From: Escherichia coli
GTDB lineage: Bacteria; Pseudomonadota; Gammaproteobacteria; Enterobacterales; Enterobacteriaceae
Assembly (NCBI RefSeq): GCF_024298765.1
Contig: NZ_CP101210.1
Reading direction: 5' to 3' (one strand)
DNA length: 64,000 nucleotides
Position 1 is the first letter of the stretch, and each line of letters begins with the position of its first letter. This document shows positions 3,200-39,479 of the stretch, piece after piece. The translations under genes were made by a program, and so were the position numbers. The notes beneath the pieces were generated by a model. The model was not told where the DNA came from, did no database searches, and worked only from the letters and a program-made list of their open reading frames with translations.

Positions 3200-3905
3200 T
3201 AATAAATATCCTCCGGCATAGCCGGAGGTTTTTCAAATGCGCCTATAAGGCTCTCTTACCAGCCGCGCCCTAACAGGCGCACACGATCTGACATTTGCAT
3301 CCAACTTCGTTACTTACGGCCCGTAAACGGGCTGCCCGGATAGGGAATCGATAACTGCTCTCCCATTTTATCCTCTTCAAGCTGGTGCTTTATGTAATCC
3401 TGTATCTTCGCCGTGTTCTTACCCACCGTATCGACGTAGTACCCTCTGCACCAGAACTCTCTGTTCCTGTATTTGAATTTCAAATCACCAAACTGCTCGT
3501 AAAGCATCAGACTGCTTTTCCCTTTCAGATATCCCATAAAGCCGGATACACTCATTTTGGGCGGGATCTCCACAAGCATATGGATATGATCTGCACAGCA
3601 TTCAGCTTCAAGAATCCGTACGCTTTTCCACTCACACAGCTTTCTCAAAATACTGCCTATTGCTCTACGCTTCTCTCTGTAGAACACTTGTCTTCGGTAT
3701 TTTGGCGCAAAAACTATGTGATATTTACAGTTCCATCGGGTGTGCGCTAAGCTCTTTTCGTTCCCCATTGGGACCCCCTTTTGATTTCTTGTTTGACACT
3801 TGCAGTTGCCAGACCGCAAGGTGTTTTAACAAATCAAAAGGGGTTTTAATAACTGGCTCAAAGCTGAAAGCTTTCCGGAACCCCCAGCCTAGCTGGGGGT
3901 TTTCT
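3200..3905 (-). mobile_element. IS200-family insertion sequence (~0.7 kb); ends approximate
   Basis: Single Y1/HuH transposase gene plus a perfect hairpin CCCCCAGC-ctag-GCTGGGGG (~3871-3889) upstream of tnpA, as in IS200; sits in what should be a short pabC-fabF spacer. Confidence 0.75.
3310..3768 (-). CDS. tnpA: IS200 transposase TnpA (IS200/IS605 family, Y1 HuH)
   Basis: 152 aa from MGNEKSLAHTRWNCKYHIVFAPKYRR, with HuH motif ADHIHMLV and a catalytic Tyr region; track ORF trimmed to the internal Met. Confidence 0.9.
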   Translation of the reverse strand: MGNEKSLAHTRWNCKYHIVFAPKYRRQVFYREKRRAIGSILRKLCEWKSVRILEAECCADHIHMLVEIPPKMSVSGFMGYLKGKSSLMLYEQFGDLKFKYRNREFWCRGYYVDTVGKNTAKIQDYIKHQLEEDKMGEQLSIPYPGSPFTGRK

Positions 3906-37372: not shown

Positions 37373-38491
37373 ATGAAATACGATCTCATCATTATTGGCA
37401 GCGGTTCCGTAGGCGCTGCCGCCGGGTATTATGCAACCCGTGCCGGTTTAAACGTGCTAATGACCGACGCCCATATGCCACCGCATCAACACGGCAGCCA
37501 CCACGGCGATACGCGATTAATTCGCCATGCTTATGGTGAAGGCGAAAAGTATGTCCCGCTGGTTCTCCGCGCGCAAACGCTGTGGGATGAACTCTCCCGC
37601 CACAACGAAGAAGATCCCATTTTTGTACGCTCTGGCGTCATTAACCTTGGCCCGGCTGATTCCACATTTCTCGCCAACGTCGCCCACAGCGCCGAACAAT
37701 GGCAACTCAACGTTGAAAAGCTCGATGCGCAAGGGATTATGGCCCGCTGGCCAGAAATACGCGTCCCGGACAACTACATCGGCTTATTTGAGACTGATTC
37801 CGGCTTTTTACGCAGCGAACTGGCGATTAAAACCTGGATCCAACTGGCGAAGGAAGCGGGCTGTGCGCAGCTGTTCAACTGCCCGGTCACCGCAATTCGT
37901 CATGACGATGATGGCGTAACTATTGAAACGGCTGACGGTGAGTATCAGGCGAAAAAAGCGATTGTCTGCGCGGGAACATGGGTAAAAGACCTGCTCCCGG
38001 AGTTGCCTGTCCAGCCCGTACGCAAAGTATTTGCCTGGTATCAGGCCGATGGGCGCTATAGCGTGAAGAATAAATTCCCGGCGTTTACCGGTGAACTTCC
38101 CAATGGCGATCAATATTATGGTTTTCCGGCAGAAAACGACGCGTTGAAGATTGGCAAACATAACGGAGGCCAGGTTATCCATTCAGCGGATGAACGTGTT
38201 CCGTTTGCGGAAGTGGTCAGCGATGGTTCGGAAGCCTTCCCGTTCTTGCGCAATGTATTGCCGGGTATCGGTTGCTGCCTGTACGGCGCCGCCTGCACCT
38301 ATGATAATTCGCCTGACGAAGATTTTATTATCGATACCCTACCCGGCCACGATAATACACTGCTCATTACCGGCCTGAGTGGGCACGGTTTTAAATTTGC
38401 GTCAGTTTTAGGGGAAATAGCTGCCGATTTTGCGCAAGACAAAAAAAGCGATTTTGATTTGACGCCATTCAGGCTTTCCCGCTTCCAATAA
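37373..38491 (+). CDS. solA: N-methyl-L-tryptophan oxidase
   Basis: 372 aa with FAD motif [15 protein letters not shown]. Confidence 0.93.
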
Positions 38492-38500
38492 TCATCATTA

Positions 38501-38525
38501 CGGCCTCCAGAATGAGGCCGTTTTT
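38501..38525 (+). terminator. solA terminator hairpin
   Basis: CGGCCTC-cagaat-GAGGCCG followed by TTTTTA. Confidence 0.65.
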
Positions 38526-38652
38526 ACAGGAGTATTTAATGCGTCGGCTGTTGCACTATCTCATCAATAATATTCGCGAGCATCTGATGCTTTATCTTTT
38601 TCTCTGGGGATTGTTGGCAATTATGGATCTGATCTATGTGTATTATTTTTAG
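38512..38652 (+). CDS. yceO: small membrane protein YceO (46 aa)
   Basis: [46 protein letters not shown]; below the track cut-off; start overlaps the solA terminator. Confidence 0.6.
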
Positions 38653-38912
38653 TTTTCCGCACTGACATAAACTGACAAATATTTAATCCCCCTTTCATTT
38701 AGCGTGAAAAATTGAATGAGATTATTCCTGCTTCAACAGCACTCACCAGACATCTCTGATGCTGAACCCACTAAACTTATGAAGATTCTTTCATTATTAA
38801 TTCAAAATTATTGAAATAAAAATAAATATCATTCAAATTGTTATTTTTGTGTTGCAATTCATTCTCCGACACGCCATTTTCTTTCTCTCGCAAAGTCGTT
38901 TTGGATGCACTT

Positions 38913-39479
38913 ATGTCATTCACAAATACCCCTGAACGCTATGGTGTTATATCTGCGGCCTTCCATTGGCTAAGCGCAATTATTGTCTACGGCATGTTTG
39001 CTTTAGGTCTGTGGATGGTCACGCTCAGTTATTACGATGGCTGGTATCACCAGGCACCCGAACTGCATAAAAGCATCGGTATTTTGTTAATGATGGGGCT
39101 GGTTATTCGCGTTCTGTGGCGCGTCATATCTCCACCGCCGGGTCCGCTGCAGAGTTATTCGCCCATGACTCGTCTTGGCGCAAAGGCTGGACATCTCGCA
39201 TTGTACTTATTGCTGTTCGCCATCGGCATCAGCGGCTATCTGATCTCAACTGCCGATGGTAAACCGATCAGCGTTTTTGGCTGGTTTGACGTCCCCGCGA
39301 CCCTCGCCGACGCTGGCGCACAGGCTGACTTTGCCGGTGCCCTGCATTTTTGGCTCGCGTGGAGCGTCGTAGTACTGTCCGTTATGCACGGATTTATGGC
39401 CCTGAAGCATCATTTCATCGATAAAGACGACACTCTGAAGCGCATGCTGGGAAAGTCGTCATCTGACTATGGAGTATAA
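38913..39479 (+). CDS. yceJ: cytochrome b561-family protein
   Basis: 188 aa from MSFTNTPERYGVISAAFHWLSAIIVYGMF with conserved heme His residues; track ORF trimmed. Confidence 0.85.
   Translation: MSFTNTPERYGVISAAFHWLSAIIVYGMFALGLWMVTLSYYDGWYHQAPELHKSIGILLMMGLVIRVLWRVISPPPGPLQSYSPMTRLGAKAGHLALYLLLFAIGISGYLISTADGKPISVFGWFDVPATLADAGAQADFAGALHFWLAWSVVVLSVMHGFMALKHHFIDKDDTLKRMLGKSSSDYGV

Follow-up and report, generated by a model that had tools for sequence, protein, structure and literature searches.

The small gene yceO of Escherichia coli most probably starts at ATG 38539 and encodes a 37-residue membrane peptide, the upstream in-frame ATG 38512 being best regarded as an accident of the solA terminator and the yceO mRNA as a product of read-through, a reading to which we assign a probability of roughly 0.83. 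It builds on direct observations of the anatomy of the site, its conservation, the boundary of the protein family and the split between annotations, and it is the in vivo start and the read-through that we infer. The DNA analyzed (the window) is a stretch of 64,000 nt, one strand, from contig NZ_CP101210.1 of E. coli GCF_024298765.1. Annotation was mapped to window coordinates from RefSeq strain 104, which is 100% identical over the query, and together with the list of open reading frames it gives the gene order dinI, bssS, solA (+), yceO, yceJ (+), yceI, and trhO (−). Both sources place the solA CDS (N-methyl-L-tryptophan oxidase) at 37373..38491 (+), with its TAA stop codon at 38489-38491 (+). 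The yceO CDS (37 aa plus stop) occupies 38539..38652 (+), as delimited by the strain 104 RefSeq CDS, the Pfam family PF10968, the ortholog alignment and codon-position entropy, and the next gene, yceJ (cytochrome b561 homolog; RefSeq annotation mapped to the window), lies 260 nt past it at 38913..39479 (+).

The original prediction that a 46-aa yceO frame starts inside the solA terminator hairpin was borne out. The 46-aa ORF is present at 38512..38652 (+) and ATG 38512 is, as had been stated, the sole in-frame start upstream that gives this product. The stem-loop (38500..38521, +) begins 9 nt after the solA stop and consists of 8 bp, 6 of them G-C pairs, with the 5' arm ACGGCCTC at 38500-38507, the 6-nt loop CAGAAT at 38508-38513 and the 3' arm GAGGCCGT at 38514-38521. 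The A and T of ATG 38512-38514 are the last two loop bases, while the 3' arm begins with its G. Directly 3' of the GC core, a run of five T (38521-38525, +; direct reading) would provide the U-tract of the terminator, its first T doubling as the final base of the 3' arm. The 35-nt segment 38496-38530 folds with −14.5 kcal/mol (z = −4.9), and none of 200 shuffles folded as well; a 76-nt segment, in which the signal is diluted by the flanks, gives a z of just −1.4. The site went uncalled in a simple terminator scan, since the maximal stem takes the first T, so that the 8-nt tail retains 4 T; if the count begins at the GC core, the tail reads TTTTTACA and has 5 T among its 8 bases, and this T5 tract is short compared with those of strong terminators. 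An Rfam scan of 38300-39000 returned nothing meaningful (a single lncRNA match with E = 0.19, attributable to chance), and the one entry at this locus in the Term-seq supplements of Adams 2021 lies within solA (1120419), the solA-yceO junction having none.

The hairpin is conserved as a structure. Altogether 28 orthologous regions align on a 7-bp core, in which three of the seven pairs show compensatory changes on both sides, with U.G intermediates: the basal pair is C-G in some sequences and U-A in others (both sides changed in 9 sequences), the pair adjoining the loop-closing pair passes from U-A through U.G to C-G, and one sequence has G-C replacing C-G. In other genera the corresponding position, 13–30 nt ahead of the start codon, is occupied by hairpins that differ in sequence. 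These compensatory changes, together with the recurrence of hairpins at one place, indicate that the structure is selected. The loop supplying the "AT" of ATG 38512, judging by the alignment, is free to vary and not conserved. Hairpin and T5 tract would form an intrinsic terminator for solA that selection has preserved throughout the family, and ATG 38512 would be an accident of it, its G held fixed at the start of the 3' arm and its AT drawn from a freely varying, A/T-rich loop.

In order to place the start of yceO, we used a solA-anchored sample of 56 loci from ~15 genera of Enterobacteriaceae. By tblastn, yceO follows solA in 53 of these, with homology always beginning at MRR. Of the 54 loci that extend beyond solA, 53 have the match ~45–140 nt past its stop codon; Enterobacter sp. 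BIGb0383 (weak match only) and Shimwellia (no match) depart from this pattern. From the conserved start the 53 syntenic loci encode 37–39 aa, save for a Salmonella arizonae copy cut short by a premature stop, and the start codon itself is ATG in 47 loci and GTG in 5, the remaining one having ATA next to a TTG. Within the 27 nt 5' of this codon an in-frame stop occurs in 18/53 loci. An ATG at −27 combined with an open frame was found in five loci, four from Escherichia and one from Kluyvera georgiana, where it occurs by chance, and in three Escherichia lineages the −27 position is TTG. All 10 Escherichia sequences compared keep the extended frame open, several of the substitutions there being synonymous, and the recurring upstream "RPFL" corresponds to AGG-CCN-TTT-TTA, which is an in-frame reading of the hairpin arm and T-tract. 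Calculated by codon position, column entropy amounts to 0.74/0.32/1.24 bits in yceO and flat (1.76/1.66/1.76 bits) in the upstream 27 nt, so that codon periodicity starts at 38539; the 27-nt extension MRPFLQEYL (38512..38538, +), which the K-12/UniProt model adds, is most likely non-coding.

The initiation signals were compared using the criteria for a canonical Shine-Dalgarno (SD)-led site, i.e., SD complementarity, a spacing of 5–9 nt, an accessible start and conservation. ATG 38539 is such a site: AGGAG at 38528-38532 (+), a motif absent from the account given in the original prediction, lies 6 nt 5' of it and pairs with the 16S 3' end at −6.9 kcal/mol (vs. −1.7 kcal/mol for ATG 38512), 5.3 kcal/mol suffices to open positions −18..+12, the start position is conserved in 53/53 loci, and a purine-rich SD-like block occurs at the same position in the orthologs. 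ATG 38512 is not, as it has no SD, is inaccessible, and exists in only 5/53 loci. Both starts might nevertheless be used in Escherichia, giving mostly the 37-aa peptide and a minor 46-aa isoform whenever the hairpin is open, for example on read-through transcripts unwound by ribosomes that are finishing solA. This idea draws on the solA stop lying only 21 nt 5' of ATG 38512, on the A and U of that codon being unpaired loop bases, and on every Escherichia sequence compared keeping the extended frame open behind an ATG or TTG at −27. It has to contend with an opening cost of 17.5 kcal/mol at the ATG 38512 site, where the G of the start codon has an unpaired probability of 0.007 (paired 0.993), with an upstream CCUCC that resembles the anti-SD and does not complement it, with three lineages that have the weak start TTG instead of ATG, and with nine extra residues that are not conserved beyond the genus and whose "RPFL" derives from the terminator. 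We consider such dual use unlikely. Even less probable is a conditional second start in Escherichia in which melting of the stem, by a solA-finishing ribosome or at high temperature, would gate a 46-aa isoform beside a constitutive 37-aa form.

Initiation at ATG 38539 also agrees with the family model. The 36 positions of PF10968 (DUF2770) align in full (profile 1–36) to residues 10–45 of the 46-aa model, with a score of 77.6 bits (cut-off 25; E = 6.7e−22), above the gathering threshold, and the nine extra residues fall outside the model. An exhaustive search with a profile built from 24 orthologs retrieved 63 cluster representatives in all; distant full-length members measure 36–41 aa, and longer gene calls are due to unrelated extensions of 10 to 108 residues. 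A family member is expected to have a length of ~36–41 aa and an N-terminus 8–11 residues ahead of the NN(I/V)RE motif, which fits the 37-aa form only. In NCBIfam neither form matched any family at E ≤ 10, so the RefSeq name "YceO family protein" must come from a rule outside the library searched, and this null does not bear on homology. We regard yceO as a real gene of the DUF2770/YceO family, whose product would be a 37-residue single-helix membrane peptide translated from ATG 38539 via AGGAG. The original prediction had offered the 46-aa and 37-aa products side by side, preferring neither. Of the two, the shorter is strongly supported (SD, accessibility, Pfam boundary, 53 loci, codon periodicity, and RefSeq pipeline annotation). 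As for the longer, thought to need an unfolded terminator or read-through from solA, the structural conflict is real, but positive support does not go beyond the open frame in Escherichia.

One could also take yceO for a non-functional chance frame in the solA-yceJ spacer, given its very small size, very low expression, lack of a known function and loss in nature (through an inserted IS1 in E. coli S9, and through a premature stop codon in one genome of S. enterica arizonae). The frame nonetheless shows strong coding periodicity, M1, N11, R13, H15, and D30 are invariant across ~15 genera, the ORF is kept even where yceJ-yceI has been lost, and chromosomal YceO-SPA was detected by immunoblot (PMC12529367). 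The chance-frame reading is effectively refuted by this conservation pattern and the published immunoblot. Regarding the losses, in E. coli S9 (locus L003, 748-1574) the IS1 sits between solA and yceO, the hairpin and the yceO N-terminus are gone, and the remnant is marked as a pseudogene in RefSeq; in Salmonella enterica subsp. arizonae CCUG 6322T (L030, 3660-3770) the stop interrupts yceO at codon 23 (the residues before it being MRRLFLFLVNNIREHFMLYVIL), and the diarizonae ortholog (L031) is intact. Among the invariant residues, the His lies just ahead of the predicted helix and the Asp inside it, and these residues may be relevant to the reported acid-stress link.

The annotations of yceO are divided along the same line. 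A 114-nt CDS mapping to 38539-38652 is present in 4/4 pipeline-annotated RefSeq E. coli genomes, and only the K-12 reference (locus b1058) uses a length of 141 nt (46 aa). The UniProt entry YCEO_ECOLI has 46 aa as well; both forms are widespread in public protein sets. The 37-aa product of the window is identical to the "YceO family protein" CDS of strain 104, and it differs by one residue (Y35F) from YceO of K-12, which lies in the same place between solA and yceJ. Should ATG 38512 nevertheless be the sole start and YceO a 46-aa protein, the K-12 reference annotation and the UniProt entry would be right and the longest ORF would be the gene; however, all the evidence for ATG 38539 counts against this, and an optimal AGGAG-N6-ATG would be left unused inside the gene even though the family-wide N-terminus coincides with it exactly, which makes this option highly improbable. 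We rather attribute the 46-aa K-12 model to the longest-ORF rule, which would have yielded it because no stop intervenes in Escherichia. The 46 aa listed by the K-12 reference and UniProt stand against the 37 aa favored by Pfam, the RefSeq pipeline and every ortholog, and the 46-aa yceO is a known annotation difference, already corrected in other resources, without new biology or a new mechanism.

Regarding transcription, a scan for sigma-70-like promoters on the plus strand of 38200-39000 found no site. With no such site between solA and yceO, the mRNA likely comes from read-through or from a promoter inside solA, i.e., from polymerases passing the terminator or starting at a putative promoter within that gene. 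We conclude that yceO is probably transcribed by read-through of the solA terminator, as judged by the absence of a consensus promoter, a criterion that would miss weak or non-sigma-70 promoters. A promoter between solA and yceO or within the hairpin was considered separately and rejected: the loop CAGAAT is −10-like (4/6), but it has no acceptable −35 and is unconserved, and the scan was negative. The T-tract and the SD are only a few (≤ 6) nt apart. Chromosomally encoded YceO-SPA is detectable by western blot at a level at least 10,000-fold below that from an induced plasmid (PMC12529367), and, in the simplest model, read-through of a moderate (T5) terminator fits this very low level. The AT-rich spacer between yceO and yceJ holds a promoter-like site on the minus strand (38807-38836; TTGAAT-18-AATAAT, 9/12 matches) that is directed at yceO and may be a chance occurrence (1 found vs. 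2.0 expected in shuffles).

The surroundings of the hairpin differ between genera. In 12 loci without yceJ-yceI (L050 of Kluyvera intermedia, 3620-3800, as well as L042-L048, L051 and L056-L058), belonging to Kluyvera, Yokenella, Pseudocitrobacter, Pluralibacter and one other genus, trhO (−) converges directly on yceO, and the stop codons of the two genes overlap (as in K. intermedia) or nearly touch. The T-run lies on the minus strand in all 11 converging loci with an unambiguous hairpin core (mean of 6.5 T in 8 vs. 3.4 on the plus strand) and on the plus strand in 29 of the 37 loci keeping yceJ-yceI (Mann-Whitney p = 2e−6 for T-run strand vs. gene order, a value that overstates independence, as the loci are phylogenetically related). 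The Kluyvera hairpins were called as minus-strand terminators by the scan. It appears, then, that a single inherited hairpin works for solA in E. coli but for trhO in Kluyvera, where yceO would lie antisense within the trhO 3' UTR. A type I toxin-antitoxin system, conceivable in Kluyvera from the minus-strand T-run and the small hydrophobic peptide, was dropped as a candidate, the T-run being explained by the convergence of trhO on yceO. A T-run whose strand follows whichever neighbor needs terminating makes a tidy, if unsurprising, example of terminator evolution. Two side observations concern yceJ. Escherichia albertii NBRC 107761 (L008) has no yceJ match and its trhO lies only 225 nt past yceO; yceJ-yceI seem to be deleted there too. 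When the window was compared with L006, L007, L038, and L054, YceJ was only ~60% identical to that of E. whittamii or cryptic Escherichia clades and 76% identical to that of E. coli E69, whereas the flanking SolA and TrhO are 95–98% identical, a pattern suggesting that yceJ underwent allelic replacement or diverged unusually fast.

The practical value of these results lies in annotation, as the K-12 reference, UniProt and the work depending on them use a 46-aa YceO. A targeted mass spectrometry study (Mol Cell Proteomics 2025; PMC12529367) employed a synthetic YceO peptide and a cloned 46-codon ORF, and the target peptide was seen solely when a pBAD24 plasmid supplied the annotated 46-codon ORF in synthetic form; the same source states that native YceO was detected by top-down proteomics, the proteoform not being stated (PMC12529367). 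If the native start is Met10 (37 aa), the targeted peptide of that study cannot arise from the chromosome and only one other peptide is informative, while over-expression constructs would carry nine non-native residues. The corrected start would also clarify the topology, with a cytoplasm-facing MRR N-terminus followed by one helix.

Beyond its own YceO/DUF2770 family, the site resembles two known kinds of system. Its GC-rich stem of 7–8 bp, 6-nt loop and T5 tract, 9 nt after the solA stop, are like those of intrinsic terminators just past stop codons; unlike at those terminators, the start of a co-oriented gene, yceO, follows 17 nt later, without a recognizable promoter of its own. A further difference from such terminators, bidirectional ones between convergent genes included, is that the T-run of the hairpin sits on the opposite strand in genera where trhO converges on yceO. 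In addition, yceO conforms to the over-extended starts that the longest-ORF rule produces in small bacterial genes, where an SD-less upstream in-frame ATG is preferred over a downstream ATG with a canonical SD. Some upstream in-frame ATG precedes a stop in 19/53 orthologs, so such annotation errors are expected to be frequent. Unlike in the usual over-extended gene model, the spurious start of yceO falls within an RNA structure on which selection acts in its own right, and the conflict is therefore visible from the sequence alone.
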